From positions 834 through 64,833 of the forward strand of contig JACZXW010000003.1 of the NCBI GenBank assembly GCA_022571415.1: 64,000 bases of DNA, in the 5' to 3' direction. This document shows positions 1 to 14,879 of the stretch, piece after piece. The notes below the pieces were generated by a model that saw only the letters and a list, made by a program, of their open reading frames with translations, had not been told where the DNA came from and searched no databases. This DNA comes from Pseudomonadota bacterium. Lineage in GTDB: Bacteria; Pseudomonadota; Gammaproteobacteria; Pseudomonadales; Azotimanducaceae. How positions within the stretch are numbered: position 1 is the stretch's first letter; every line of letters starts with the position of its first letter. Made by a program: the position numbers and the translations under genes.

Positions 1-13
1 GGTAGTCCGTGAT

Positions 14-616
14 ATGGAACAGGAAGCCTGTTTTATATTGATGCTATGGGCGATATCGCTCATGGGCTACAAAGCGCTGCAATCACAGCGGGAAAGGAAA
101 ATCCTGCAGCTGGATCTTATTCCCCTGACCCAGGGTACCAGTATCCTGCCGGAGGACAGTCGGGAGTATTCGAGGCCTATCCAGGCTCTACCGGAGTCGC
201 AGCAGGGATTTCTGTTACCGAGATCCTTGTTAACAGCACTACATCGTTTCCGTTCTACCAGGAATATCCAGGACGTGTCCAACTCAATCCGGGCAATATG
301 CAACTCTGAATCGGAAAGACTGGATTCGGAACTGTCAATGATCCGCTATATCGCCTGGGCAATCCCTTCAATCGGGTTCCTTGGCACCGTCCGCGGAATA
401 GGGCAGGCGTTGGGACAGGCTCACAAAGCTGTTATGGGAGATATAGCTGGCGTAACACAAAGTCTCGGCATTGCTTTTAATTCTACATTTGTTGCTCTGC
501 TGATCAGCATTCTCGTGATGTTCCTTCTGCACCAGCTTCAGCTGACACAAGAAAGACTGGTTCTTGATGCCGAGGATTATTGTGACAACCGACTTATCCA
601 ACACCTACAAACATAG
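14..616 (+). CDS. MotA/TolQ/ExbB-family proton-channel protein (possibly 5'-truncated by the window edge)
   Basis: 200-aa ORF with three predicted TM helices. The C-terminal half carries the family signature (IPSIGFLGTVRGIGQAL ... GIAFNSTFVALLISILV). The frame stays open back to nt 2, so the true start may lie upstream of the window. Confidence 0.8.
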   Translation: MEQEACFILMLWAISLMGYKALQSQRERKILQLDLIPLTQGTSILPEDSREYSRPIQALPESQQGFLLPRSLLTALHRFRSTRNIQDVSNSIRAICNSESERLDSELSMIRYIAWAIPSIGFLGTVRGIGQALGQAHKAVMGDIAGVTQSLGIAFNSTFVALLISILVMFLLHQLQLTQERLVLDAEDYCDNRLIQHLQT

Positions 617-627
617 CGAGACGTCAC

Positions 628-1938
628 TTGGCTCTTGGAATTATTGAGATTAACGACGCCGGCATACAGGTCGCCATAGAAAATGAAATCGTGACTACCA
701 GCCCGGGATTTGCCGTGTTGGATGGTGATCACCTGATGGTGGGTGAAGAAGCATTACAGAATGCCAGGCTACTACCACGCTGGACCAACAACCGATTCTG
801 GAATCAGCTCAACACAGATCCCATTGCTAACAGCACAGACAATGTTCGCCATCATGCTGATCTTGCATTCGCACATCTGGATTCCCTGTGGCAACCCATA
901 AGAGAGCAGGTTGACAGCGTCATTTTGCTGGTGCCGGCCTATTTTGAGCATTCTCAACTGGGACTCTTGTTAGGCATCGCCGGAGAAATTGAGATACCCG
1001 TTGTTGGCGTTGCTGACGTTTCGCTTATGGCAGCCTGCGATCTGCCGGTTAGATCGACTTGCCTGCATCTGGACGTGCACCTGCACAGAACAACACTCAC
1101 TAATCTGTCGAGCGGTAATACCCTGAACAGGACAAGGACCGCTACTATTACGGAAACTGGAATCTTCAAATTGTGGGATCGTTGGGCCAACATCATCGCC
1201 CACCAGTTCATCCAGAGTTCCCGATTTGACCCGATGCACCAGGCCCGCAGCGAACAGGCACTATTCAACCAGCTGCCTGCCTGGATAGAACAGCTCGGAA
1301 CTTCGCGGGGAAATCAGTTCGAACTGGATCTTGGGGACATCAATCACTCGGTATCAGTCTCCCGCGATCAACTCTTGACTGCTTGCGCCCAAATTTATCC
1401 GCTACTTGTGCAGTTCATACGCGCCCAGGCGACAACTGACGAGGTTTCGACCCTACTCCTGTCCCATCGATTTGCAGGATTCCCCGGATTGAAAGATTCT
1501 CTGGGGCTCATCAGTAATGTCGAGCTGGTAGAACTTGAAGCAGCGCAATCGATTATCAGCGCCTATGCACATGCTGACAGGATTATTTCGGGTGACGGTG
1601 CCATCAACCATATTACCCAGCTACCCATCAGCAACCGGACAAACAGTACCAATCTGTCCCAGGACAAGGCGCGGGTTACACATATGCTGATGGGTCATCA
1701 TGCCGTCGCCATCGGCAAATCTTTTCAGTTGTCCCGCAATTTTAACGAGGGCATACGAAAGGATCCCGAAAATCCCATCTGTACGCTCTATCCACGTGGT
1801 GATGACCTGTACGTGGATGTTCACACTGCTGCAGCCCTGAAGGTCAATGGAGAACCCGCAAGTGGGCAAATCCCTTTGAAACCCGGTGACATTCTTAACG
1901 TCGGCGAGTATGTCATCACCCTCATTTCGGCCTCCTAG
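628..1938 (+). CDS. Hsp70/actin-fold (ASKHA) NBD-like protein with C-terminal FHA-like domain
   Basis: 436-aa ORF with a TTG start 11 nt after the upstream stop. It has a DnaK-like segment VILLVPAYFEHSQLGLLLGIAGEIEIPVVGVADVSLMAA (compare DnaK VPAYFND..AG.IAGL..RIINEPTAAA). The last ~90 aa show an FHA-type pattern (AIGK ... KVNGEP ... LKPGDILNVGEYVITL). No signal peptide or TM helix. Confidence 0.55.
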   Translation: MALGIIEINDAGIQVAIENEIVTTSPGFAVLDGDHLMVGEEALQNARLLPRWTNNRFWNQLNTDPIANSTDNVRHHADLAFAHLDSLWQPIREQVDSVILLVPAYFEHSQLGLLLGIAGEIEIPVVGVADVSLMAACDLPVRSTCLHLDVHLHRTTLTNLSSGNTLNRTRTATITETGIFKLWDRWANIIAHQFIQSSRFDPMHQARSEQALFNQLPAWIEQLGTSRGNQFELDLGDINHSVSVSRDQLLTACAQIYPLLVQFIRAQATTDEVSTLLLSHRFAGFPGLKDSLGLISNVELVELEAAQSIISAYAHADRIISGDGAINHITQLPISNRTNSTNLSQDKARVTHMLMGHHAVAIGKSFQLSRNFNEGIRKDPENPICTLYPRGDDLYVDVHTAAALKVNGEPASGQIPLKPGDILNVGEYVITLISAS

Positions 1939-1948
1939 TTAACCTGCC

Positions 1949-3043
1949 ATGGTAAAGCGCCGCGAATTCAACGTCTTTACCCTTTCCTTTCTGGACGTCA
2001 TGTTTTGCGGATTCGGCTCTGTCATCCTGATCTTCATCATCATCAACCATTCAACAGAAACTACCTCCCAGGAAATAAACGCGAAGCTCCTCGCGGAAGT
2101 AAAAAAAATAGAACTACAGGTGGAGAACGAAACACTCAACCTAGTGGAGCTCCGAAATACGCTTGAAGAAGCCGAAGATGAAATCATTACCACAGAGGCT
2201 TTGGTGCTTGAAATTATCCTGGCGATTAAGGAACTGCAGGCGAAGATTCAGGAGCTGGCGGACTCAGGGGCGAGCCAAAAGGATAATATCGAAGCATTGA
2301 AATCCGAGCTTAAATTACTCGAGGAAGAAGCAGCAAGTCTGGAGGGGAGTGTCGCCGGTGCAGAATCCAGCGGGTCAAGCCTGCGCAGCATCGTTGGGCA
2401 AGGAGACCGGCAGTACCTCACTGGCCTTAAAATCGGCGGCCAGCACATACTGATTCTTCTCGATGCCTCCGCCAGCATGCTGGATAAGACGATTGTAAAC
2501 GTCATTATAAGACGCAACTTACCAGACGAAATTAAACTTCAATCAGAGAAATGGCAGCGTGCAATCCGAACCGTTGAATGGATCACCGCCAACATGCCAA
2601 GCGACGCCAACTTCCAGTTGTTTACTTTCAACACAGAGACAAAACCAGTGATTAAAGACACAGAAAATGAATGGCTGCGGGTGATCGAGAAAGCGGACAC
2701 TGATGAGGCACTGGCTAACCTGAAAAAAATAATCCCGTCCGGCGGCACCTCGTTGCATCATCCTTTTGCCGTCGCGAGAAACATGGAACCTCAACCGGAC
2801 AATATCTTCCTGATCATCGATAGCTTGCCAACCCAGGGATTTGAAAAACCAAAGAGAAGCGCCATCGAAAGCCGGGACCGTGTGGCTTTATTCAGTAGCG
2901 CCCTGGAGGAATTACCGGACGCGAGCCCGATCAACATCATCCTGTTTCCCATGGAGGGAGATCCGATTGCTGCACCATCTTACTGGCGCCTCGCACAAAT
3001 AACTGGCGGGTCATTCCTGGCACCACCGGATGATTGGCCCTGA
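1949..3043 (+). CDS. membrane-anchored coiled-coil vWA-domain protein with ExbD/TolR-like N-terminal TM segment
   Basis: 364 aa. A basic N-terminus is followed by the TM segment LSFLDVMFCGFGSVILIFIII and a ~130-aa E/L/K-rich heptad-like segment. The vWA domain has MIDAS DASAS (ILILLDASASM) plus SGGTS and LIIDSLP motifs. Confidence 0.75.
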   Translation: MVKRREFNVFTLSFLDVMFCGFGSVILIFIIINHSTETTSQEINAKLLAEVKKIELQVENETLNLVELRNTLEEAEDEIITTEALVLEIILAIKELQAKIQELADSGASQKDNIEALKSELKLLEEEAASLEGSVAGAESSGSSLRSIVGQGDRQYLTGLKIGGQHILILLDASASMLDKTIVNVIIRRNLPDEIKLQSEKWQRAIRTVEWITANMPSDANFQLFTFNTETKPVIKDTENEWLRVIEKADTDEALANLKKIIPSGGTSLHHPFAVARNMEPQPDNIFLIIDSLPTQGFEKPKRSAIESRDRVALFSSALEELPDASPINIILFPMEGDPIAAPSYWRLAQITGGSFLAPPDDWP

Positions 3044-4047
3044 TGCGTACTCGTCGACGGAATATAGAAGGAGCCAGCCTCTCATTTCTTGATGTTATAA
3101 GCTGTGGTTTTGGCGCCTTAATATTGATGTTAGTACTAACCAAGGTATTTGAACCAATCATTCTCGAAGACACCATTGAGAACCTGCAAGGTTACCTGGC
3201 CGCATTACAGCTGGATCTACTCGAAATTCGTGGAGACACCAAAGCATTGAACCGGGAAATGGTGAGGAAGGAAGACAAGCAGGAGGAGGAGCGCAAGGAA
3301 CTCTCCCGCCTGAAGGCAGACCTTTCCGCGCTGAAATCAAAGTTCGATGCCACCATTGACAAGAGCAAAGTTGACAATATTATCGAGGGCAGGCTGGCAA
3401 CGGCCAAGCAATCACTTACCGCCGAAATGGAAGCGCTGCTAGTCGACTACAAGAAAAGTCTGGACGACAACAAGATCGGCGGCATTCCAGTCGATAGTGA
3501 ATATATCATTTTTATCATCGACACCTCAGGCAGCATGTACAACTATGCGTGGCCTTTGGTGCTGCAAAAAGTATCTGAAACCCTGGACGTCTACCCTAAA
3601 TTGAAAGGCATCCAGGTCATGAATGATATGGGTAACTATATGTTCTCCCAGTACACCAACGACTGGATTCCGGACACGGCCGCCCGGCGGCGAGCGATTA
3701 TTGAAAGATTGCGAACCTGGAACGTATTCAGTAACTCCAGCCCCGTGGAGGGGATTACAAAAGCAATATCTACATTCTATAAACCTGGAAGAAAAATAAG
3801 CCTGTACGTATTCGGTGATGAATTCAGTGGTCGCTCAATCCAGCAGGTTGTCGATAAGATCGATAGAATCAACCGCGAAGATAAAGACGGTAACAGGATG
3901 GTCAGGATTCACGCCATCGGTTTCCCCGTACAATTCGCCAACCCTCCCCGGTACCAGGATACAGGCATTAAGTTCGCTATCCTGATGCGGACCCTGTGCG
4001 AGAGGAATGGCGGCACGTTTATTGGCCTGAATGATTTTCGATACTAG
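3043..4047 (+). CDS. second membrane-anchored coiled-coil vWA-domain protein (paralog of 1949..3043)
   Basis: The ATG at 3043 overlaps the upstream TGA (TGATG); the ORF track starts at the TTG at 3034. TM segment LSFLDVISCGFGALILMLVL, then a coiled-coil-like stretch. The vWA MIDAS is DTSGS (IIFIIDTSGSM), with LYVFGDEFSG later. Confidence 0.75.
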   Translation: MRTRRRNIEGASLSFLDVISCGFGALILMLVLTKVFEPIILEDTIENLQGYLAALQLDLLEIRGDTKALNREMVRKEDKQEEERKELSRLKADLSALKSKFDATIDKSKVDNIIEGRLATAKQSLTAEMEALLVDYKKSLDDNKIGGIPVDSEYIIFIIDTSGSMYNYAWPLVLQKVSETLDVYPKLKGIQVMNDMGNYMFSQYTNDWIPDTAARRRAIIERLRTWNVFSNSSPVEGITKAISTFYKPGRKISLYVFGDEFSGRSIQQVVDKIDRINREDKDGNRMVRIHAIGFPVQFANPPRYQDTGIKFAILMRTLCERNGGTFIGLNDFRY

Positions 4048-4158: not shown

Positions 4159-4779
4159 ATGACTATCAGTGACTACGAAATACAACCATTATTTGCTGAA
4201 CCCTACTTTAGGGCGGACATCGGTCATGCCATCACTGACGCGCAAATAAAGTATATTAAAAATCTAACCATGGTAAAAAACAGGGATAATCTGATCTCTG
4301 AAAATCTCTATATATTCAGAGAGCCGGAACTGCAGAGTATTACGGAAGCAGTGCAAGAAGCATTAGATCTTTTTACACGTGAAGTAATGGGTATTAAACA
4401 AAAACTCTACGTTACACAATCATGGTCTTTGACTAACAACCCCACGGTTAGTATGCATGGTCACTCTCATTCTAATTCCATTATATCCGGTTCTTTATAT
4501 TATTGTGATATGCCTTCTCCAGTGGCAAATATGATTTTTGACAGACATAAAACATACCAACAGCTAGAAATAAGACCGGAAGGAGATAAACAGAATATAT
4601 ATAACACGCCACTAAATATCCTTACTCCTAAAAAAAATGCGCTGTTTCTGTTTTCGTCCGGTATTCAACACTTTGTTGAAGCAAATTCCTCCAATCAACC
4701 AAGACACTCAATAGCATTTAATACTTTCATTAAAGGTAAATTGGGTAGTTATAGAGATGTGTCAGAGCTATCGTTGTGA
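4159..4779 (+). CDS. TIGR02466-like putative 2OG-Fe(II) oxygenase family protein (AT-rich gene)
   Basis: 206 aa. The motif SMHGHSHSNSIISGSLYY resembles the HxH...SG.YY pattern I associate with the TIGR02466/2OG-FeII_Oxy_5 family. Two 60-nt lines that I counted gave 35-38% GC. Confidence 0.5.
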   Translation: MTISDYEIQPLFAEPYFRADIGHAITDAQIKYIKNLTMVKNRDNLISENLYIFREPELQSITEAVQEALDLFTREVMGIKQKLYVTQSWSLTNNPTVSMHGHSHSNSIISGSLYYCDMPSPVANMIFDRHKTYQQLEIRPEGDKQNIYNTPLNILTPKKNALFLFSSGIQHFVEANSSNQPRHSIAFNTFIKGKLGSYRDVSELSL

Positions 4780-4882: not shown

Positions 4883-4992
4883 CGAATGAAGTGACAGCCA
4901 TTGCCTCACAATCACAGCAGATCATCACCCACGCAATTTCGCGAGTACAGCCGTACACCCGGACCAGGCCCGCCGGGCTATAATTGCAAACC

Positions 4993-6795
4993 ATGATCAA
5001 CGCCATCGACATTCTGCAAAATACGTTCGGCTACGATCAATTCCGGCCACCACAAGAAGACATTATCGCAACCTTGATTGATGGCGGTGATGCGCTCGTT
5101 TTGATGCCCACTGGCGGCGGAAAATCTCTCTGTTACCAGATTCCCGCGATTGTCCGGAAAGGTTGCGGTATCGTTATATCGCCTTTGATTGCTTTGATGC
5201 AGGATCAGGTCGACTCCCTGCAAGAGCTTGGCATACGCGCCAGTTTTCTGAATTCTACGCTAGATCGACAGGACGAGATCCAGATAGAAAAATCCTTGCT
5301 TGAAGGACAACTGGACCTCTTGTATATCGCCCCGGAACGATTGATACAACCACGCACACTGTCCCTACTCAAACAATCCAGCATCAGCCTGTTTGCCATT
5401 GACGAGGCACATTGTGTCTCTCAATGGGGGCACGATTTTCGCACGGATTACCTCGAACTAAACCTATTGCATGAGGAATTCCCCGGTGTGCCACGCATCG
5501 CGCTTACGGCAACAGCTGACAAGAGAACCCGGGAAGAAATTATTTCCCGACTTGAATTGCGACAGGCCAGCCAGTATTTCGCCGGGTTCGATCGCCCCAA
5601 TATCCGCTACACCATCGCGATCAAGCACAATCCTCGAAACCAGCTTCTGCGTTTTCTAAAGAATGAGCACTTGAACGACGCCGGCATCATCTATTGCCTG
5701 TCACGCAAGAAAACCGAGGAAACTGCCACCTGGTTAAGCAAACAAGGCTTCGAAGCACTGCCCTATCACGCCGGTCTGTCTCCCAAGATACGGACCGAGC
5801 ACCAGTCCCGTTTTCTGCGTGATGATGGCGTAATCATCGTCGCAACGATTGCCTTCGGCATGGGCATCGATAAGCCGGATGTACGCTTTGTCGCGCATAT
5901 GGATCTGCCCAAGACGATCGAATCCTATTACCAGGAAACGGGGCGAGCCGGCCGGGATGGATTGCCTGCAGATGCCTGGATGGTTTACGGGTTACAGGAT
6001 GTGATTAAACTCCGCCAGATGCTCGATAGCGCGGGTGGCAGCGAGGAACATAAACGTCTTGAGGCGCACCGCCTCAATGCCATGCTGGCTCTCTGTGAAA
6101 TCACCTCGTGTCGACGGCATGCACTGCTCATGCATTTCGATGAGCAATCAGCAGAACATTGCGGTAACTGCGATACGTGTCTGACACCAGTCGATACCTG
6201 GGACGGAACCGAAGCCGCCCAAAAAGCGCTTAGCGTGGTGTTTCGAACGGGACAACGTTTTGGTGTCAATCACCTGATTGATGTGCTGCGTGGAATCGAG
6301 ACTGACAAGATTTTTCAATTCGATCATCACCAGTTGCAGGTGTACGGAATAGGCACGGAGATCGACAAGAACCAGTGGCACTCTGTCTTTCGACAACTGA
6401 TGGCACGAGGTTATATCAGCGTCGAGCTTGATCGCTTTGGCGGAATCAGGCTGGAAGAGAAATGCCGCGCGCTGCTGCGGGGTGAAGAAACGATCGAGTT
6501 GCGTCGGGACATCAAACAAAAGGTCGTTAAAAAACTGACCGTGACACCATTGCCTGAAGATATCGACGTCGGTATCTGGGAAGCCTTGAGAGAATGTCGA
6601 CGCCAACTGGCTGAGGCCCAAGGCGTCCCGCCTTTCGTTATTTTCCATGACACGACCTTGCGCGAGATGGCCGGCTCAATGCCGAAAACCCTCGACGAGT
6701 TTGGGCTTTTATCCGGCGTTGGTGAAAGAAAACGCGAGAAGTACGGTCCGGTGTTCCTCGAAGTGATCGCCAGCACGAATTCCGGTCAACTGTAA
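4993..6795 (+). CDS. recQ: ATP-dependent DNA helicase RecQ
   Basis: FGYDQFRPPQ, PTGGGKSLCYQIPA (Walker A), DEAHCVSQWGHDFR (DEAH box), a Zn-binding Cys cluster (CGNCDTC) and a C-terminal HRDC-like region. The ATG is at 4993; an alternative TTG lies at 4984. Confidence 0.95.
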   Translation: MINAIDILQNTFGYDQFRPPQEDIIATLIDGGDALVLMPTGGGKSLCYQIPAIVRKGCGIVISPLIALMQDQVDSLQELGIRASFLNSTLDRQDEIQIEKSLLEGQLDLLYIAPERLIQPRTLSLLKQSSISLFAIDEAHCVSQWGHDFRTDYLELNLLHEEFPGVPRIALTATADKRTREEIISRLELRQASQYFAGFDRPNIRYTIAIKHNPRNQLLRFLKNEHLNDAGIIYCLSRKKTEETATWLSKQGFEALPYHAGLSPKIRTEHQSRFLRDDGVIIVATIAFGMGIDKPDVRFVAHMDLPKTIESYYQETGRAGRDGLPADAWMVYGLQDVIKLRQMLDSAGGSEEHKRLEAHRLNAMLALCEITSCRRHALLMHFDEQSAEHCGNCDTCLTPVDTWDGTEAAQKALSVVFRTGQRFGVNHLIDVLRGIETDKIFQFDHHQLQVYGIGTEIDKNQWHSVFRQLMARGYISVELDRFGGIRLEEKCRALLRGEETIELRRDIKQKVVKKLTVTPLPEDIDVGIWEALRECRRQLAEAQGVPPFVIFHDTTLREMAGSMPKTLDEFGLLSGVGERKREKYGPVFLEVIASTNSGQL

Positions 6796-6817: not shown

Positions 6818-9073
6818 CTAGATCGTATATCCCTCTTCACTTAACGGCATCCGCCGCACCCTGTGCCCCGTTGCTGCGAATATCGCATTGCCAACAGCCG
6901 GCGCTAGGGGCGGCAAGGCCGGTTCGCCAATTCCCGTTGGGGCGTGGTCACTCTGGATAAAATGAATATCTACTTTAGGCGAACTCGGCATACGCAGTAT
7001 TTTGTAGTCGTGAAAATTCGATTGCTGAATTCTTCCATTCTCCATCGTGATTTTCTGCGCAGCCATGGTACTCAGCCCATCAATGACAGCGCCTTCCACC
7101 TGTGAAGTTGCACCGCTCATGTTGATGATTGGACCAATATCCACCGCCACGGTAACATTGTGCACGGTAAGTTTCTTGTTGGCATCGACACTCACCTCTG
7201 CCACTTCGGCAATATGGGCTGCATGACTGAAATGAAAAGCCAGACCGAGGCCATGACCCTGGGGCATTTTTCGACCCCAACCCGCCTTTTCTGCAACGAG
7301 CTTGATCACGTCAACTGCACGTCCTGTATTGAGTGACCGGATGTTTCCTTGCTCGAACCACCGGGGTTCACCCATAATCTCCAGCAGGAATTCCAGGTGA
7401 TCTCGCCCGGCAGCATGAGCAAGTTCGTGGATAAAGCTCTGGATGACAAAGGCGGTGGTGTTGGCACCCGGTGCGCGCCAGGGCCCGCAAGGTGTACCGA
7501 TCTCGAACATTGTTTTCGTCGCCCGAACATTGTTCACATTCAACATTGGAAATTCTGTCTTGCGAAATCGGGATCCGGAAACGGGTTTTCCGTTGTTGGT
7601 CATCCCTATAAAATGATCTTCGAAAGCAACAAGCTTGCCACTCGCGGACAGTGCGCCCTTCACAGACTGAAACCCGCCCACTCTGAAGAAGTCATGGCGA
7701 ATGTCATCTTCACGGGTCCAGGTGTGTTTAACAGGCGCACCGACCCGGCGCGACATCTCAATCGCCTCACACACATATTCAGTACTGACACGGCGTCCGA
7801 AACTGCCTCCAAGTCGCATCTGGTGGATCGTGACCTGTTCCTGTTCGAGGCCAAACATGGGTTTGGTGACACGATATGCACCCGCCGGGAACTGGGTAGG
7901 CATCCATAGTTCAAGGGTGTCCTTTTCGCCGTTCGTACCCGCCTTGTAATGGGCGCTGCAGTTCATGGGTTCCAGGCAAAAATGCGAGACAAAAGGATAT
8001 TCATAAAAAGCGGTGAGGGTCTGATTCTCAGTATTGGAAAACTCAGCGTCAACATCGCCTCTTTCATCGATCAGTTCATCGCCGCGTTTGTTTTCAAGCG
8101 CTTTTGCCCTGGCAACCAATCCAGTCCAGCTGTCTTTCGATGCGCCCGACTCATCCCACTCGACTTTCAGTTTTTTCTTGGCATTAAAAACTGCCCAGGT
8201 CGAACTGCCTACTATAGCAACCCCGTCTAACAATTCCCTCACGTTGCCATTACCCTCGACCAGAAACGCATCTTTGACACCAGGCAGTTTTTTTATTTCA
8301 TCAATATTTGCGCTGACGACTTCGCCGCCAATCGCCGGGCACTTGTGGTAAGCACCGTAAAGCATATCCGGTACACGTGTATCGATACCAAACAGAGCGA
8401 GGCCTGTAACAATCTCCAGGTTATCTACACCAGAAATAGAGGTACCGATAATGGTGTAGTCTTCGCGATCCTTAAACACCAGCGTGCTCGGATCAGGCAC
8501 CGGTTGCTTCACAGCAAGCGCCGCCAACTGACCAAAGGTCAAGGAGCGACCAGATGCATGCGAAACGGCGCTTTCATGCGCCTTGAGCTCATCCTTTGGC
8601 AGTTCCATCGCCGTCGATGCGGCACCGATGAACATCTCACGAGCAGAAGCCCCCATCTGTCGCATCAGGTCAAAACTTCGTGGAATGGTCGTTGAACCAC
8701 CGGCACCTTGTCGTCCAAAACGTTCATCAACTGGTGACTGCAAGACCCGTACATCTTCCCATTTCGCTCCCATCTCCTCTGCAATAATCATCGGCAGGGC
8801 CGTTTTGATCCCCTGACCCATTTCCGGATTTGATGAGTAGATCGTAATTTCACCTTCCGATGACACCTTGATAAAAGTATTCAATTCGACCGAGCCAACC
8901 AGACTTCCCAGATCTTCTGCAGCGACGTGTCTCATGGGCAGGAGTGATGCCAGTACGAACCCTCCTCCGGCAACGCCACTCAATTTCAGAAAGGCGCGGC
9001 GATTAAGATTCGGCCGGAAAGCAGCACGATATACTGCTTTGGTAACGGCAGACACAAGATCATTGTCATTCAT
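6818..9073 (-). CDS. molybdopterin-binding subunit of an aldehyde oxidase/xanthine dehydrogenase-family oxidoreductase (IorB-like), Tat-exported
   Basis: 751 aa. Twin-arginine signal [21 protein letters not shown]. The length and sequence are typical of isoquinoline 1-oxidoreductase beta-type subunits. It overlaps the upstream 2Fe-2S subunit gene by 4 nt. Confidence 0.85.
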
Positions 9074-9579
9074 GCTACATCCTCCCCAAGGTTAACGGCC
9101 GAGGATGGTGTCGCCGCGTTGTCGTAGGTGGCAGCGCTGTGGATCGCCTTGCGAATACGATTGTAAGTACCACACCGACAATAGTTACCCACCATGGCCG
9201 CATCTATATCCGCGTCGGTAGGTCTGGGTTTTACCTCAAGCAAGGCGGCGGCAGACATGATCTGGCCTGCCTGACAGTAACCGCACTGTGGTACATCCAG
9301 ATCGATCCACGCCTGCTGTAGCGGGTGCAGATCAGTACCCTCAGCTAGACCCTCAATGGTGCGAACAGACTGTCCCGAAATATCGGAGACGCGAACTAAA
9401 CAGGATCGAGTGGGCGTGCCGTTAATGTGAACGGTGCAGGCACCGCACTGGGCGATACCACAGCCGTACTTGGTTCCCACAAGACCCAGTACATCGCGCA
9501 GAGCCCATAACAGCGGCATTTCCGGATCGACATCAAGCTCCTCATCCTTGCCGTTCACTTTTAGTTGATATCTGGCCAT
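9070..9579 (-). CDS. (2Fe-2S)-binding small subunit (IorA-like)
   Basis: [33 protein letters not shown] and CRCGTY motifs. The start is taken at [10 protein letters not shown], which has GAGGGG upstream; the ORF track extends to 9594. Confidence 0.9.
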
Positions 9580-9685
9580 AAGACTTCCCCTCATTTCATG
9601 TCATCAGTGTACTGTCGTAAGGCGAGGAATGGTACATAGGGCTATGATGAAAAAAGACGGTCGTTATCGCTCCATCCGGAATCAA

Positions 9686-10483
9686 TCAGGACCGGATACC
9701 TCTCGCTTTCCTGCCTCGGTAGCTCGAATCAATCAACCGTTTGGGATGAACACCATCGACAAAACCCATGAACCCGGGCGCCCTCACACTGTAGCCCAGA
9801 AGCGCCTGAACCCGGTCCGAGTACTGCGCGGCTTTATTCGGCGGTACCGCTAACACCATGGTTTCCAGCTGTCGCAGCCACGGCTGGCAATACTGTGGTG
9901 TAATGGCCAGACGCGGCTTATCGGAGTGGTTGGCGCCACCTCGGTGGTACAAAGAGCTGCTGAAAATGAACACCGATCCCTTCGGCATCACCGCTTTCAC
10001 TACCCTGGCGTCATCTTCAGCCGGACGTTCGTCGGTCCAGGAGTGGCTATTTGGAATGAATTCCGTAGCACCATTGGTATCGGTAAAGTCATCAAGGTTC
10101 CAGACCGTGCTGATACCATGATGCCTGGTGGGGTCTGCTCCATCACCGCCCACATTATCTCGATGAAAGTTTTGTCTGGTTTCACCGGGGTGAGTGTTTA
10201 TAGCCAGATTTGCAGACAATAAATAATCCGCCTCAAGCAGTTCATCAATGATTGCCAGCGCGCAAGGATGTTCAACTACCTTTGCCAACACAGGATCTTT
10301 TGCCAGAAGCGCATAGACTCGTTCCGTATCGTAACCCTCAAAGTTATTCCGGCCCTTTCGTTTTCCTTGTAACCAGGGTGAAAGCGCAATCTTCAGTCCT
10401 TCAACTTCGGCTTCGCTCAACACAGATTCAATAATCGTGTAGCCGTTTCCCCTGATTTGGCGAACGTGATCTGAAATATCCAT
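9686..10483 (-). CDS. phytanoyl-CoA dioxygenase (PhyH) family protein
   Basis: 265 aa. The N-terminus (IRGNGYTIIESVLSEAEVEGL) and the H.D...H-type core (FHRDNVGG ... LYHRGGANHS) resemble the PhyH family. Confidence 0.75.
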   Translation of the reverse strand: MDISDHVRQIRGNGYTIIESVLSEAEVEGLKIALSPWLQGKRKGRNNFEGYDTERVYALLAKDPVLAKVVEHPCALAIIDELLEADYLLSANLAINTHPGETRQNFHRDNVGGDGADPTRHHGISTVWNLDDFTDTNGATEFIPNSHSWTDERPAEDDARVVKAVMPKGSVFIFSSSLYHRGGANHSDKPRLAITPQYCQPWLRQLETMVLAVPPNKAAQYSDRVQALLGYSVRAPGFMGFVDGVHPKRLIDSSYRGRKARGIRS

Positions 10484-10710
10484 CTGCGCACCTTCGATCT
10501 GTTTTGAATCCTAAAGCCGTGCTGACCCCATGAAGCCTGGCCGGACCTCCCCATCACCGCCTCAATCTCAACCTACATGCCGGGCACTACAAGACCAGTG
10601 CTGGTACTGCCGTGTGCACCGCTAAAACAGGTGTTTTTCTGTACCCAAGTATCGTGTATACACTTCCGTAAAACCTTAAAAAAGACTTGCAGCTTTCTCT
10701 GTCCGGGTGA

Positions 10711-12114
10711 TTAGTGGTTGAATCGCGCTATATAGGTAACTGTCTGTTCTGCGCCTTTGGGCAGTTTTAAAGTATAAGCCACTGTGGCGCTGTCTAACTT
10801 TTGACCTTTGTGGCTCTCCTGGATGATGATCCAGTCACCGTTAAGCTTTTCTTTCACTACCAACTCGATCGCCTTGTCCTTGTGATTCTTCACTGTAATT
10901 GAGTAGCCTACTTCTACACCACGGTTCCCGAGCCGCCGGTATTCTGTCTGTTTTCTAATCGCAGTCACATCAAAAGCCCGCCCAACTTTAATCACGATGT
11001 CAGAGTTAACGGGAGTGTGTTGCACCCGGTCTTCACCCGCAAGTTGTAAAATACCCTCACTATCTGCTTTATAAACTCGTACTTTGCCTGCAGGTAGCGG
11101 TACATTGAGGTTATTTTTGCGTGTATTTCTGAAAGCCAGGATGACATCGGCTTTAAGATTCTGCATGCCCTGGGCCTGGTAGAGCACCACTTCGTTTTGC
11201 AGAACATAAGATTTTTCAATATCAATACCCTTGGCAGCCATCAGCCTCACTTGTTTTACCGAATTGGCTTCTAGCGTGGTGCGTCTTGGAAAATCATAAA
11301 CATGATACTCAAAGAATGACTGTCTACCGGGGACAACGGCTGCGAATTCCTGCGCTTCCAGAGTCGCTCTGTGTGCCATGACAGGTCGGCTCCTGATCCT
11401 TTGCACGTCTCCTGCAACCAGTTTTAGCTTGGCGTTCCTGTAGGCGGCGCCACTCTGGTTGACCAGCGTTACCCAACCATCCAGGTCTGCTTTAGACTCA
11501 TCGTTATTTAAGGTCAATATGTAATCTGTCTGCCACGATACATTTTCAGTGAGATAGGAAATTTGCAGGCCTTGCCGGTCCTGGACAGAATTTTCCATGG
11601 TCCATAGCAGTGTGGGGGTCGTGATGAGGTCATCCGGCAGATAGGCCAGCGAAATGATGCCTTCTGGTTCAATCTCGATTTCATCGCCAAATCTGACAAT
11701 TTCGGGATTAATCGACAGCAGGACGCCTTCACGAAGCATCTTCTCGTAACGGGTCCCTTCCAGCACGCTTCTGGAATATTTAAGTTTCCGACCGAGGAAT
11801 CTCTCCAGCAGCGTTTGTTTGTTTAACAAATCGTAACGATAACTTTGCTCGAAAACCTGCAGTCCTCTTTCATCTGCGGCAGATATCACTAGCACAGATG
11901 AAGGGTCAATACTCCGGGCGACATCCCTGAATTCGAGTTCAAATTCACCAATCGGCAGCAGGACATCCCGTTTTTCACGGATGATCGCAAAGTTGCCATT
12001 GTAAATCGTGACACTGACGTCAACCTGTTGTTCATCGCCCACGACTATTCGCTGACCCGCGGCAAGTGAAACCGAGAAATAGCAACAAATGATTATCTTT
12101 AACGTCCTGATCAT
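10711..12114 (-). CDS. secreted DUF4139-like protein
   Basis: 467 aa with an N-terminal signal-like hydrophobic segment. The N-terminal pattern VSVTIYNGNFAIIREKR and the overall length recall DUF4139/DUF4140 proteins. This call is from memory only. Confidence 0.55.
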   Translation of the reverse strand: MIRTLKIIICCYFSVSLAAGQRIVVGDEQQVDVSVTIYNGNFAIIREKRDVLLPIGEFELEFRDVARSIDPSSVLVISAADERGLQVFEQSYRYDLLNKQTLLERFLGRKLKYSRSVLEGTRYEKMLREGVLLSINPEIVRFGDEIEIEPEGIISLAYLPDDLITTPTLLWTMENSVQDRQGLQISYLTENVSWQTDYILTLNNDESKADLDGWVTLVNQSGAAYRNAKLKLVAGDVQRIRSRPVMAHRATLEAQEFAAVVPGRQSFFEYHVYDFPRRTTLEANSVKQVRLMAAKGIDIEKSYVLQNEVVLYQAQGMQNLKADVILAFRNTRKNNLNVPLPAGKVRVYKADSEGILQLAGEDRVQHTPVNSDIVIKVGRAFDVTAIRKQTEYRRLGNRGVEVGYSITVKNHKDKAIELVVKEKLNGDWIIIQESHKGQKLDSATVAYTLKLPKGAEQTVTYIARFNH

Positions 12115-12268
12115 CCAGGATTCATCCTACGCTGAAGCACCCAGTCGCCAAGGGTATCACACTCCCTGCCTTGCGCCCTCAAGGTAGGGTTAAGCATTGT
12201 TCCAACCTCAAAAGTGTGATTTATTAACTTTGTAATCCCAGCTGCCTTGGTGCCAAATACAGACAATT

Positions 12269-12736
12269 ATGACCTTGTATTCACTCACTTTGAACGGACA
12301 ACAGCGTACAGTAGACGCTGACGGCGAGACCAGTCTGTTGCAACTGCTGCGCAACGAATTCTGTCTCAACAGTTTAAAGTATGGCTGCGGTACGGAGCAG
12401 TGCGGTGCTTGTCGCGTACTTGTTGACGGCGAAGTCACCTGTGCCTGCACTCGAACCCTGGCGGAATCCAGCGGCACTGACGTCGTTACCGTCGAAGGAC
12501 TGTCAGAAGATCGCCAGCTGCATCCGTTACAAAGGAGCTTCCTGGATCTGAACGCCGGACAGTGCGGATACTGCCTGAGCGGGATACTGATCACTGCCTA
12601 CAAATTATTGCAGACGAACAGCAATCCGGACAGGTCAGAAATTGCCGCTGCCCTCAAGGACAACCTCTGCCGTTGTGGTGCCCACAATCGAATTATTGCT
12701 GCAATTGAAGCTAGCGCGAGCATGACCGATGAGTAG
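12269..12736 (+). CDS. (2Fe-2S)-binding small subunit of a second IorAB-like oxidoreductase
   Basis: GCGTEQCGACRVLVDGEVTCAC, QCGYCLSGILIT and CRCGAHNRI motifs. Confidence 0.9.
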   Translation: MTLYSLTLNGQQRTVDADGETSLLQLLRNEFCLNSLKYGCGTEQCGACRVLVDGEVTCACTRTLAESSGTDVVTVEGLSEDRQLHPLQRSFLDLNAGQCGYCLSGILITAYKLLQTNSNPDRSEIAAALKDNLCRCGAHNRIIAAIEASASMTDE

Positions 12737-14879
12737 TGAATTACCCGAAGCTTTGCAGCGCAACCCTCTGCTCTCCACCTGGCTGCGGTTCGACAATGAA
12801 AAAGTGCAGGTGCAAACGGGAAAAGTGGAATTAGGCCAGGGAATATCGACCGCCCTCGCCATGATCGCTGCTGAAGAACTCGATGTCTCCCTTGATCAGA
12901 TTGATATTCAGACAGGCAGGACCGATTCCGGTCCCAATGAATTCATGACGGCGGGTAGTATGTCCATCGAAGGAAGTGGCAGCGCGGTTCGCCAGGCTTG
13001 CGCAGATGCGCGAGCGCATTTTTTGAATCAGGCTGCCGGCTTGTTCGATGTCAGCCCCGAGGTGCTATCCATCTGCGACGGCGTCATTTCAAACCCGAAT
13101 GGCAACGAGCAGATTTCCTATTGGCAACTGCTTGATGGCAGCCAGCTGGATTTTGAAGCTAACGGGGAAGCTAAGCTGAAAGCAACTGGGCAGTACAAGC
13201 TGGTTGGTTATTCCACCACCCGCATCGACCTGTTAGCAAAGCTCACCGGCGAAACCGCGTTTATCCAGGATCTCAGATTCGAAAACGCAATGCATGCGAG
13301 GATTGTTCGTCCTCCGGGCATGGCATTTAGTCTCTCTTCCCTGGACGCCAGTCGCGTTGAATCAATGCCCGGTGTCTGCAAGGTGGTTATAGATGGTAAT
13401 TTTATCGGCGTCATCGCCGAAAACGAATTCACAGCGGTAGAGGCGAGAAAGAAACTGCATCAACTGGCCCGGTGGAAAACCAACCAGGCAGACAGGTTGC
13501 CGCCAGATGTCCCACGATTCCTGAAGGAAAATGTCGATGAAAGTTTGCTGGTCGTCGATGGCACCCCAACCGATTCCAGTATCCCACCGCTACTCGACGC
13601 AGCCGGTGGAATCCACTGCAGGGCAACTTACTTCAAGCCCTATCATCTCCATGGTTCAATCGGTCCCTCCGCCGCTATCGCTGAGTTTCGAGATAACCAC
13701 TTGATCATCCACTCCCACAGCCAGGGTCCTCATGTTATTCGAGCAGCCATTGCCCAGGCGCTGGGCATGGACCTCGATCAGGTCACCGTTATTCACGCTG
13801 AGAATGCCGGTTGCTACGGGCACAATGGTGCCGATGATGCAGCCATGGACGCCGCCATGCTGGCTCGCCATTACCCCGGGCACCCTATTTTTCTGCAATG
13901 GCAACGACAGGACGAACACCGGTGGGAACCGTTTAGCCCGGCAATGTTGATAGAACTGGACGCTTGTGTCATAGACGGTTCAATCAGGTTCTGGAATGCC
14001 GACATCTACAGTCAGACCCACATGGGCAGGCCGATTCCTTTCGGCAGTGTGACCAATCTCGTTGCCGCGTGGCAGAAGGCAGATCCGATGCCACGCGCCG
14101 AAGCGCGACCTGGCATTGTATTTCATGGTGGCATTCACAGAAATGCCGATCCCTGCTATCAAATTCCTGAAAAAAGGATCGTCAAGAATCTTGTTAAGGA
14201 CCAGAAGGTAAGAACGTCTTCGACACGCTCTCTCGGCGCCTTTGCTAATGTATTTGCCATCGAATCATTTATGAACGAACTGGCATATGCATCCGGCCAG
14301 GATGCTGTGCAATTCCGGCTCAACCACCTGCGGGATGATCGAGCCAGGGCGGTCATAATAAGCATGGCTGCGCGCCTGAGAGGATATCGGCTAAAGGAAC
14401 GTGACGGATGGCTATATGGCCGTGGAATCGCCTTCGCCCGATATAAGAACAGTAAATGCTATGCCGCTGTGGGTGTCATCCTGTGCATCAACCAGGAAAC
14501 TTTTGAAATCAGCCTGGTGCACGCGGTCATTTCAGCCGATGCCGGGCAGGTTATCGATAAAGACGGACTAACGAATCAATTGGAGGGCGGATTTATCCAG
14601 GCGGCAAGCTGGACCCTGAAGGAAGCTGTGCTATTCGGCGAATATGCATCTATCAGTGACGACTGGGAGAGCTACCCGATTCTCACCTTCCCGGAAATTC
14701 CCACGGTAGAAACGCTCATCCTTGATCAACCCCAGGAACCGAGCCTTGGTGCAGGAGAAGCGACCCAGGGGCCGACTCCGGCAGCAATCAGCAACGCCAT
14801 TTTCGACGCAACCGGCATTCGCATCCGCGAGATACCTTTTCTTCCTGAGAAACTAAGAAGCCTGGCGCTTAAAGATTAG
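12729..14879 (+). CDS. molybdopterin-binding large subunit (aldehyde oxidase/xanthine dehydrogenase family), no Tat signal seen
   Basis: 716 aa. The start overlaps the small-subunit gene by 8 nt. VELGQGISTALAMIAAEEL and GAGEATQGPTPAAISNAIFDATGIRIR are typical of this family. Confidence 0.85.
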   Translation: MSSELPEALQRNPLLSTWLRFDNEKVQVQTGKVELGQGISTALAMIAAEELDVSLDQIDIQTGRTDSGPNEFMTAGSMSIEGSGSAVRQACADARAHFLNQAAGLFDVSPEVLSICDGVISNPNGNEQISYWQLLDGSQLDFEANGEAKLKATGQYKLVGYSTTRIDLLAKLTGETAFIQDLRFENAMHARIVRPPGMAFSLSSLDASRVESMPGVCKVVIDGNFIGVIAENEFTAVEARKKLHQLARWKTNQADRLPPDVPRFLKENVDESLLVVDGTPTDSSIPPLLDAAGGIHCRATYFKPYHLHGSIGPSAAIAEFRDNHLIIHSHSQGPHVIRAAIAQALGMDLDQVTVIHAENAGCYGHNGADDAAMDAAMLARHYPGHPIFLQWQRQDEHRWEPFSPAMLIELDACVIDGSIRFWNADIYSQTHMGRPIPFGSVTNLVAAWQKADPMPRAEARPGIVFHGGIHRNADPCYQIPEKRIVKNLVKDQKVRTSSTRSLGAFANVFAIESFMNELAYASGQDAVQFRLNHLRDDRARAVIISMAARLRGYRLKERDGWLYGRGIAFARYKNSKCYAAVGVILCINQETFEISLVHAVISADAGQVIDKDGLTNQLEGGFIQAASWTLKEAVLFGEYASISDDWESYPILTFPEIPTVETLILDQPQEPSLGAGEATQGPTPAAISNAIFDATGIRIREIPFLPEKLRSLALKD

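Follow-up and report, generated by a model that had tools for sequence, protein, structure and literature searches.

Flagella, TonB-dependent uptake, the maintenance of the outer membrane, gliding and type 9 secretion all run on proton-driven 5:2 motors. To our knowledge, each known motor type is defined by the attachment of its dimeric inner subunit, and all characterised ExbBD, TolQR and MotAB channel subunits need such an inner partner. Here we analyse a locus at the start of a 64,000-nt stretch (hereafter the window) of contig JACZXW010000003.1, from a gammaproteobacterium of the Azotimanducaceae, in which two adjacent genes for membrane-tethered von Willebrand factor A (vWA) domain proteins, vWA1 and vWA2, lie downstream of a gene for a MotA/ExbB/TolQ-family channel subunit. 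We consider it likely that the locus encodes a proton-driven 5:2 motor with a vWA1-vWA2 heterodimer as the inner, Asp-bearing subunit in place of ExbD, TolR or MotB.

Proteins of this kind have been described under the name 'TPH-vWA' in 'Origin and Evolution of Bacterial Periplasmic Force Transducers' (Mol Biol Evol 2025; PMC12204202). They are vWA proteins tethered by a transmembrane (TM) segment that occur 'predominantly in heterologous pairs', have no tolR or exbD neighbour and lack the S-H-L-S motif; they are found in Proteobacteria and Verrucomicrobia, and the seed proteins are from Idiomarina loihiensis (PMC12204202). In AlphaFold 3 models of the family, the helix Asp is surrounded by a ring of threonines (PMC12204202). 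The locus in the window has these traits, namely a heterologous pair, linkage to a tolQ-like gene with no tolR, exbD or motB nearby, an Asp in the helix, no S-H-L-S and the threonine ring. Placed by these described features rather than by alignment to the Idiomarina loihiensis seeds, it belongs to the TPH-vWA family. The vWA pair as an inner motor subunit has already been published on the basis of the AlphaFold 3 models, and the present analysis is an independent confirmation.

Anchor helices of vWA1 and vWA2

The two vWA genes and their parts are as follows.

1949..3043 (+): vWA1, 364 aa; basic cytoplasmic tail, Asp-bearing anchor helix, coiled-coil stalk and vWA domain with a complete metal ion-dependent adhesion site (MIDAS)
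1982..2047 (+): vWA1 anchor (putative transpore) helix, residues 12-33, LSFLDVMFCGFGSVILIFIIIN
2054..2398 (+): predicted coiled-coil stalk of vWA1, residues ~36-150; matches to coiled-coil families (crescentin rod, SMC) over residues 38-150
2426..3040 (+): vWA domain of vWA1, Pfam VWA_3/VWA_2
2462-2476, 2741-2752 and 2813-2824 (+): motifs of the vWA1 vWA domain, respectively MIDAS D-A-S-A-S, GGTS and IIDS
3043..4047 (+): vWA2, 334 aa; built like its paralog vWA1
3079..3147 (+): vWA2 anchor (putative transpore) helix, residues 13-35, LSFLDVISCGFGALILMLVLTKV; helix 14-35 in the AlphaFold2 model
3166..3465 (+): helical stalk of vWA2, residues 42-141, from AlphaFold2, with low confidence as a monomer model
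3490..4044 (+): vWA domain of vWA2, from Foldseek, with MIDAS D-T-S-G-S at 3520-3534

The N-terminus of vWA1 is MVKRREFNVFTLSFLDVMFCGFGSVILIFIII and that of vWA2 is MRTRRRNIEGASLSFLDVISCGFGALILMLVL. Both N-termini, and the codons of the aspartates D16 of vWA1 (GAC, 1994-1996) and D17 of vWA2 (GAT, 3091-3093), agree between the list of open reading frames (ORFs), the sequence and what the earlier note had claimed. In each ORF, a basic tail is followed by S-F-L-D-V-x-x-C-G-F-G and then by a hydrophobic helix. vWA1 and vWA2 are paralogous (BLASTP E=1e-8; 26% identical where aligned), with the anchor seeding their alignment. The vWA2 ATG overlaps the vWA1 TGA by 1 nt (TGATG), pointing to translational coupling.

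When one genome per species was scanned, at least 584 species proved to hold relatives; 80 loci were kept, and in all of these vWA1 and vWA2 are adjacent (80/80). Wherever the N-terminus is present in these loci, both paralogs carry (S/A)-F-L-D-x-x-x-C-G-F-G, with the Asp invariant. A profile search of 1.84 billion cluster representatives (clusters at 50% identity) returned 3452 relatives at E<=1e-3, of which 547 reach E<=1e-30. The strict motif is found in 112 of the 149 best representatives, and seven more keep the Asp with variant following residues; the remaining 30 comprise fragments truncated at the N-terminus, unrelated architectures and, in the case of P0458, a protein with a divergent and possibly erroneous N-terminus. 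Distant subfamilies, one member of which is verrucomicrobial (Puniceicoccaceae), retain the Asp as L-L-D or F-M-D. With this member, the taxonomic spread agrees with that published for the TPH-vWA family. The Asp to which the earlier note had assigned the central role is thus conserved in orthologs, being invariant in the 80 loci, in 119 representatives and in the distant relatives.

Conservation extends beyond this residue. Among 32 vWA1 orthologs, L12, F14, L15, D16, C20, G21, F22, G23, I26 and L27 are invariant, and when 28 sequences of the two families are aligned jointly, residues 12-27 hold nine of the 27 invariant columns (L12, F14, L15, D16, C20, G21, F22, I26 and L27). The best conserved segment common to the two paralogs is the anchor and not the vWA domain. 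The C-G-F-G codons lie at 2006-2017 and 3103-3114, and the motif, placed four residues past the Asp, does not vary in either paralog across the family. By inspection of the alignments, the anchors contain no S-H-L-S motif of the TolA/TonB kind and no His inside the helix.

The hydrophobic span averages 21.5 residues in 117 representatives, with a mean net charge of +2.85 ahead of the helix and -1.17 over the 15 residues that follow; 98% of these proteins are biased in this direction. This positive-inside bias argues for a cytoplasmic N-terminus and a periplasmic stalk and vWA domain, the topology that the earlier note had predicted.

Channel gene and conserved gene order

The channel gene opens the cluster within the window and carries two positions that bear on the function of the anchors.

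2..616 (+): MotA/ExbB/TolQ-family channel subunit; PF01618, E=6.8e-15, 55.4 bits (cut-off 22.9)
386-388 and 485-487 (+): codons of the channel pore threonines (T in GFLGTVRGI and T in AFNSTF), from the TolQ profile alignment

The neighbour that had been called 'ExbB-like' is a genuine MotA_ExbB member by this PF01618 match; NCBIfam gives weak TolQ and ExbB matches. The window holds the 3′ part of the conserved cluster, and the 5′ end of the channel gene lies beyond the window edge: the frame is open back to base 2, and about 65 residues are missing relative to orthologs of ~265 aa. Searched with phmmer against PDB, a single MotA-like ortholog has no match, and a profile is needed. A profile of 27 channel orthologs aligns gap-free to E. 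coli TolQ (PDB, E=0.0037), with the invariant threonines of G-F-x-G-T-V-R-G-I and A-F-N-S-T-F opposite TolQ T145 and T178. In ExbB, TolQ and MotA, the pore threonines ring the Asp of the inner subunit (PMC12204202). In the present family, the pore residues and the anchor residues are both nearly invariant. The MotA-like protein also has an invariant Asn-Ser-Thr three residues past the equivalent of TolQ E173.

The same-strand order of channel gene, Hsp70-like/FHA gene, vWA1 and vWA2 is kept without exception in those of the 80 loci that have enough flank. The loci span Pseudomonadales sensu lato (Halieaceae, Azotimanducaceae, OM182, Cellvibrionales), Acidobacteriota and one myxobacterial metagenome-assembled genome, and distant relatives have a MotA-like gene and a vWA pair in like order. 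Two cassette contigs are labelled 'Candidatus Fonsibacter ubiquis' (L009) and 'Flavobacterium sp.' (L016); their vWA1 proteins are 60-65% identical to that of the window, and both are probably mis-binned gammaproteobacterial contigs. In the window, the four genes are separated by gaps of 11 nt and 10 nt and then joined by the 1-nt overlap, so the cassette looks like one operon. A promoter and terminator scan gave no sites above the shuffled control.

A jackhmmer search started from E. coli ExbD and TolR detected no ExbD/TolR-like ORF in the 64-kb window, nor within 6 kb around the cassette in the 80 loci. Searches of Pfam, NCBIfam and PADLOC with the window's four cassette proteins likewise gave no ExbD/TolR, MotB or convincing defence-system match. 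With no local ExbD/TolR, the channel would be without its needed partner if the vWA pair did not take that role.

We hypothesize the following arrangement. The N-terminal helices of vWA1 and vWA2 would insert into the pore of the MotA-like pentamer, as modelled with AlphaFold 3 for the published family (PMC12204202), and a pair of distinct anchors is what the '2' of a 5:2 complex would call for. By analogy with ExbBD, TolQR and MotAB, D16 and D17 would face the ring of threonines equivalent to TolQ T145 and T178 and would take up and release protons, and proton flow would turn the pentamer relative to the vWA dimer. From N-termini placed in the cytoplasm by the charge bias, stalks of ~100-115 residues would carry two MIDAS-bearing vWA heads into the periplasm. 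There the heads may hold some partner, a candidate being a membrane-anchored protein with four PEGA domains and an FGE fold. Synteny, together with the precedents of PorLM-PorK and AglRQS-GltG/GltI, suggests this protein and also, on the cytoplasmic side of the pentamer, the Hsp70-like/FHA protein and a TPR protein as candidate partners.

Weighing the proposed motor against other readings

The earlier note had described the anchors as 'ExbD/TolR-type'. The E. coli ExbD and TolR anchors that it gave are correct and match the solved chains 6tyi_Y and 9ddm_Y. For comparison, we used 80 metagenome ExbD genes, all with the Asp; as the search pattern selects near-identical anchors, the resulting profile is narrow, and it was widened with MotB and ZorB anchors from solved structures in PDB. 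A scan of viral contigs for ExbD gave a single locus. When 265 vWA anchors were aligned to the ExbD alignment with hhalign, the single best local alignment placed V9-F19 of vWA1 on I18-L28 of ExbD, with Asp16 on Asp25 (P=0.013; 6 of 300 column shuffles reach the score; observed 17.5 versus 15.0 for the reversed alignment). The register is identical against the pooled ExbD/TolR/MotB/ZorB anchors (P=0.0024; 1 of 150 shuffles) and against MotB/ZorB alone (P=0.013; 3 of 150 shuffles). At the level of sequence, this Asp-to-Asp register appears reproducible, with a similarity limited to about F-x-D-(V/I/L)-(M/I) that seems too weak for a database-wide search.

Jackhmmer searches seeded with E. coli ExbD and TolR did not recruit the vWA proteins, which also do not contain the ExbD/TolR periplasmic alpha/beta domain, having a helical stalk and a vWA domain in its place. 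Of the 'ExbD/TolR-type' description, the Asp register has some support from profile-profile alignment (P 0.0024-0.013), and membership of the family does not hold. Sequence alone is no proof of homology between the anchors and ExbD. As both the profile match and the periplasmic domain fail, we regard the vWA anchors as functional analogues that work like ExbD, and not as members of the ExbD/TolR family.

Several observations count against the proposed motor. The significant profile match of the anchor to ExbD/TolR that the earlier note had set as a check did not appear: PF02472 matches neither the full vWA proteins (E<=10) nor 34 isolated anchors, and a hidden Markov model (HMM) of the anchor retrieved no ExbD, TolR or MotB chain from all PDB sequences, the only match being a chance C-G-F-G in NDUFB4. 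The same HMM did not rank 81 ExbD/TolR sequences above 4197 decoy ORFs (median -1.8 bits; 292 decoys at or above that score). The motif shared with ExbD comprises about five residues (F-x-D-V/I-M) and may reflect convergence, and C-G-F-G has no counterpart in the retrieved ExbD, TolR, MotB and ZorB anchors. On the channel side, the equivalent of TolQ E173 is V or I in MotA-like orthologs and Ile in the window (codon 470-472). The Hsp70-like/FHA gene is absent from one distant subfamily (L166/L167), so this partner is not universal, and the roles suggested for the partners come from synteny and analogy. Our full-text literature search found no experimental work on the TPH-vWA family.

We weighed three other accounts of these proteins. 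The vWA proteins might be peripheral transducers of the TolA/TonB type, sitting outside a pentamer whose pore is filled by an ExbD/TolR encoded elsewhere. A separate vWA family with exactly this TolA-like arrangement exists (PMC12204202), and the weak similarity between the anchors and ExbD would be in keeping with it. However, neither the 6 kb around the cassette in the 80 loci nor the 64-kb window holds an ExbD/TolR gene, the anchors have no S-H-L-S on inspection and carry an invariant Asp in the ExbD position, and two paralogous anchors match the 2 of 5:2; we regard a peripheral role as quite improbable. Alternatively, these could be ordinary tethered vWA proteins like BatA and BatB, with the helix acting as an anchor only, the Asp and C-G-F-G serving helix-helix heterodimerisation or ion binding, and the channel gene functionally separate. 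That Pfam detects the vWA domains only, that public annotation does likewise, and that no ExbD profile matches significantly would all fit such proteins. The anchor, and not the vWA domain, is nevertheless the part best conserved across the paralogs, the arrangement of genes with the channel does not vary between Gammaproteobacteria, Acidobacteriota and Verrucomicrobiota, the channel would be left without its obligatory partner, and no MoxR, DUF58 or Bat genes are among the conserved neighbours. We rejected the BatA/BatB reading on gene context and consider it improbable.

A different possibility relates to what the system is for and does not conflict with a motor mechanism: a MotAB-like complex that, as in Zorya anti-phage defence, senses envelope perturbation and signals to cytoplasmic effectors. 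The channel protein has weak PADLOC ZorA matches (E ~1e-3), one distant locus is flanked by Ser/Thr kinases, and vWA, FHA, FGE-fold and TPR domains recur in conflict systems (PMC7159879). Against this, the conserved set contains no ZorC, ZorD, ZorE, nuclease or other effector; the channel, at ~265 aa, has no long ZorA tail, compared to 487-505 positions in the PADLOC ZorA models; and the neighbours are stable across many species, unlike those of a variable island. A defence function was rejected on gene context, and we hold it to be highly improbable.

The motor with the vWA pair as its inner subunit remains our preferred reading. The mechanistic link to the channel that the earlier note had drawn, in preference to generic BatA/BatB-type proteins, finds its main support in the gene order, the lack of ExbD/TolR and the pore threonines. 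The link is supported by conservation, topology and above all gene context, and weakly by sequence similarity to ExbD.

Set beside ExbBD and TolQR, the locus has a channel in PF01618 with both pore threonines and an N-in single helix with the Asp a few residues into the membrane, and the F-I-D-V-M of ExbD resembles the vWA anchor core F-(L/I)-D-V-M. In contrast to these systems, the vWA pair has neither PF02472 nor the ExbD/TolR periplasmic domain, carrying a coiled coil and a vWA domain instead; it would form a heterodimer of paralogs rather than a homodimer, and there is no TonB/TolA-like third protein here. The equivalent of E173 also differs in not being conserved, and the vWA anchors have the extra invariant C-G-F-G. 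MotAB and PomAB stators and ZorAB share the 5:2 plan with an Asp-bearing B-subunit helix, and the vWA anchors align Asp-to-Asp with MotB and ZorB. Unlike these, the vWA pair has no OmpA-like peptidoglycan-binding domain, and no flagellar or Zorya partner genes are present at the locus.

Further parallels are found in the type 9 and gliding machinery. PorLM/GldLM with PorK/GldK and PorN resemble the present system in having a 5:2 motor, a long periplasmic extension on the dimeric subunit and an FGE-fold protein. GldL and GldM are, however, without detectable sequence relationship to the proteins described here, and the taxa differ; the comparison would be one of analogy. PorK is an outer-membrane lipoprotein, whereas the FGE-fold protein of this cluster is a bitopic inner-membrane protein with four PEGA domains. 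AglRQS-Glt of Myxococcus xanthus pairs a TolQ-like pentamer with AglQ and AglS, two TolR-like subunits that differ from each other (PMC11761067), and also offers the predicted docking of an FHA domain (GltG), a TPR scaffold (GltI) and a vWA adhesin, CglB (PMC11761067). It differs in carrying the vWA domain on an outer-membrane lipoprotein and not on a pore helix, and in comprising ~17 proteins compared to ~6 here. BatA and BatB, from the Bacteroides aerotolerance operon, combine an N-terminal membrane anchor with a vWA domain in a neighbourhood of MoxR, DUF58 and Bat genes. The present locus has no MoxR, DUF58 or Bat genes and differs further in its invariant intramembrane Asp beside a MotA-like gene.

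vWA heads, partner genes and meaning of the system

vWA1 has at least 2426 relatives and vWA2 more than 8000, and public annotation of both sets is 'VWA domain-containing protein'. In Pfam, vWA1 matches VWA_3 (29.3 bits, cut-off 27) and also VWA_2, and vWA2 has weak vWA matches only. The AlphaFold2 model of vWA2 has a helix at residues 14-35, long helices at 42-104 and 107-141 and an alpha/beta domain at 150-330 (pLDDT mostly ~80-90) that resembles the ITIH1 vWA domain, integrin I-domains and the bacterial vWA 4fx5 (Foldseek against PDB, E 8e-8 to 1e-6). Both proteins keep a full MIDAS, that is, D-x-S-x-S with a downstream Thr/Ser and Asp, and D172, S174, S176, T267 and D291 of vWA1 are invariant among orthologs. 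As the full MIDAS is kept in both, their sequences make metal-dependent ligand binding by the vWA heads likely. Stalks of 100-115 residues would measure ~15-17 nm as a continuous helix (0.15 nm per residue) and could reach the cell wall or the outer membrane.

Directly after the vWA2 helix, closer vWA2 orthologs keep K-V-F-(E/D)-P, which is absent from vWA1; the window copy reads VFEPI (residues 35-39, 3145-3159). Judging from its position, this motif could be a juxtamembrane plug or contact element. Four proteins (P0371, P0465, P0480 and P0492) match the vWA part strongly within other architectures, none of which has the Asp anchor: one is a 473-aa protein with a signal-peptide-like start, and three, of 507-756 aa, have multi-TM N-termini. 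The vWA head is therefore not confined to the motor context.

Between the channel gene and vWA1 lies a further member of the cassette.

628..1938 (+): Hsp70-nucleotide-binding-domain-like/FHA protein, 436 aa; no TM segment

Having no TM segment, its product should be cytoplasmic. The window copy has no Pfam or NCBIfam match, and its AlphaFold2 model has a mean pLDDT of 88.9. Residues ~1-335 adopt an Hsp70-like nucleotide-binding (actin-like ATPase) fold, the top Foldseek PDB matches being nucleotide-binding domains of Hsp70 and Hsp110 (E ~1e-16), and residues ~350-436 form an FHA-type beta sandwich, orthologs of which match Pfam FHA (PF00498, E 4e-11 to 7e-12). The phosphate loops, I-N-D-A-G and D-V-H-L-H-R, are degenerate by eye, making ATP binding by the Hsp70-like domain doubtful. 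The distant locus L162 has the gene as well (E=8e-37), and partial copies occur in L163 and L164. The L162 cassette is flanked (1-410 and 9023-12964) by large Ser/Thr kinases fused to FGE-sulfatase and lectin-like domains, which hints at phospho-dependent control via the FHA domain.

Two same-strand genes upstream of the cassette lie outside the window (positions 241-1467 and 1467-3530 of locus L001) and are conserved in 60-63 loci. One encodes a TPR protein; the product of the other is bitopic and combines four PEGA domains with an FGE-sulfatase fold. The PEGA/FGE protein has formylglycine-generating enzymes (E ~1e-16) and PorK/GldK (E=8e-13) as relatives; it apparently lacks the FGE catalytic cysteines and would then be non-catalytic, like PorK. 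Its gene is also found in both distant subfamilies (L162 and L166). In the L166/L167 subfamily, which comes from a 2.96-Mb contig (6063-9009 in L166), a 57-aa single-TM ORF directly precedes the MotA-like gene, and the PEGA/FGE gene and both Asp-bearing vWA genes are kept.

In the type 9 system, PorK forms an FGE-fold ring associated with the PorLM 5:2 motor (PMC12421860). The Agl-Glt model has GltG docked by its FHA domain at the cytoplasmic face of AglR, the TolQ-like pentamer, and FHA domains are also binding partners of the TPR protein GltI (PMC11761067). The PorK/PorLM and GltG/GltI precedents make the partner roles proposed here plausible. The main text of PMC12204202 does not mention the Hsp70-like/FHA, TPR or PEGA/FGE genes for the vWA family. 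Tentatively, we suggest a hitherto undescribed six-gene envelope machine (TPR, PEGA x4/FGE, MotA-like, Hsp70/FHA, vWA1 and vWA2) in which proton-driven rotation might be coupled in the periplasm to a MIDAS-held, PorK-like FGE-fold partner and, in the cytoplasm, coupled to or gated by the FHA/pseudo-Hsp70 protein, a possibility to which we give clearly less credence than to the motor itself.

Downstream of vWA2, the window encodes a 2OG-Fe(II) oxygenase (4159..4779, +; PF13759), a complete RecQ helicase (4984..6795, +; DEAD, Helicase_C, RecQ_Zn_bind, RQC and HRDC) and a molybdopterin-binding oxidoreductase subunit (6818..9073, -), none of which is conserved beside the cassette in other genomes. 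The full cassette is present in two cultured strains, Exilibacterium tricleocarpae R142 (L047) and Pseudohaliea rubra DSM 19751 (L072), which could serve as genetic hosts for Asp mutants.

Beyond the published idea, our analysis adds a defined set of conserved partners, the finding that homology to ExbD is unproven by sequence, and these two cultured hosts. Interest now centres on the proposed mechanism, the set of conserved partners and the invariant C-G-F-G motif. The inner subunit is here fused to adhesion-type vWA domains, and the vWA motor would be widespread, with relatives in at least 584 species genomes and 3452 protein clusters, including those of abundant marine Gammaproteobacteria. 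If the six-gene machine exists as suggested, it would stand beside the type 9 and Agl-Glt motors as their counterpart in Proteobacteria and Acidobacteriota, and its output may be, for example, surface movement, secretion or envelope remodelling.

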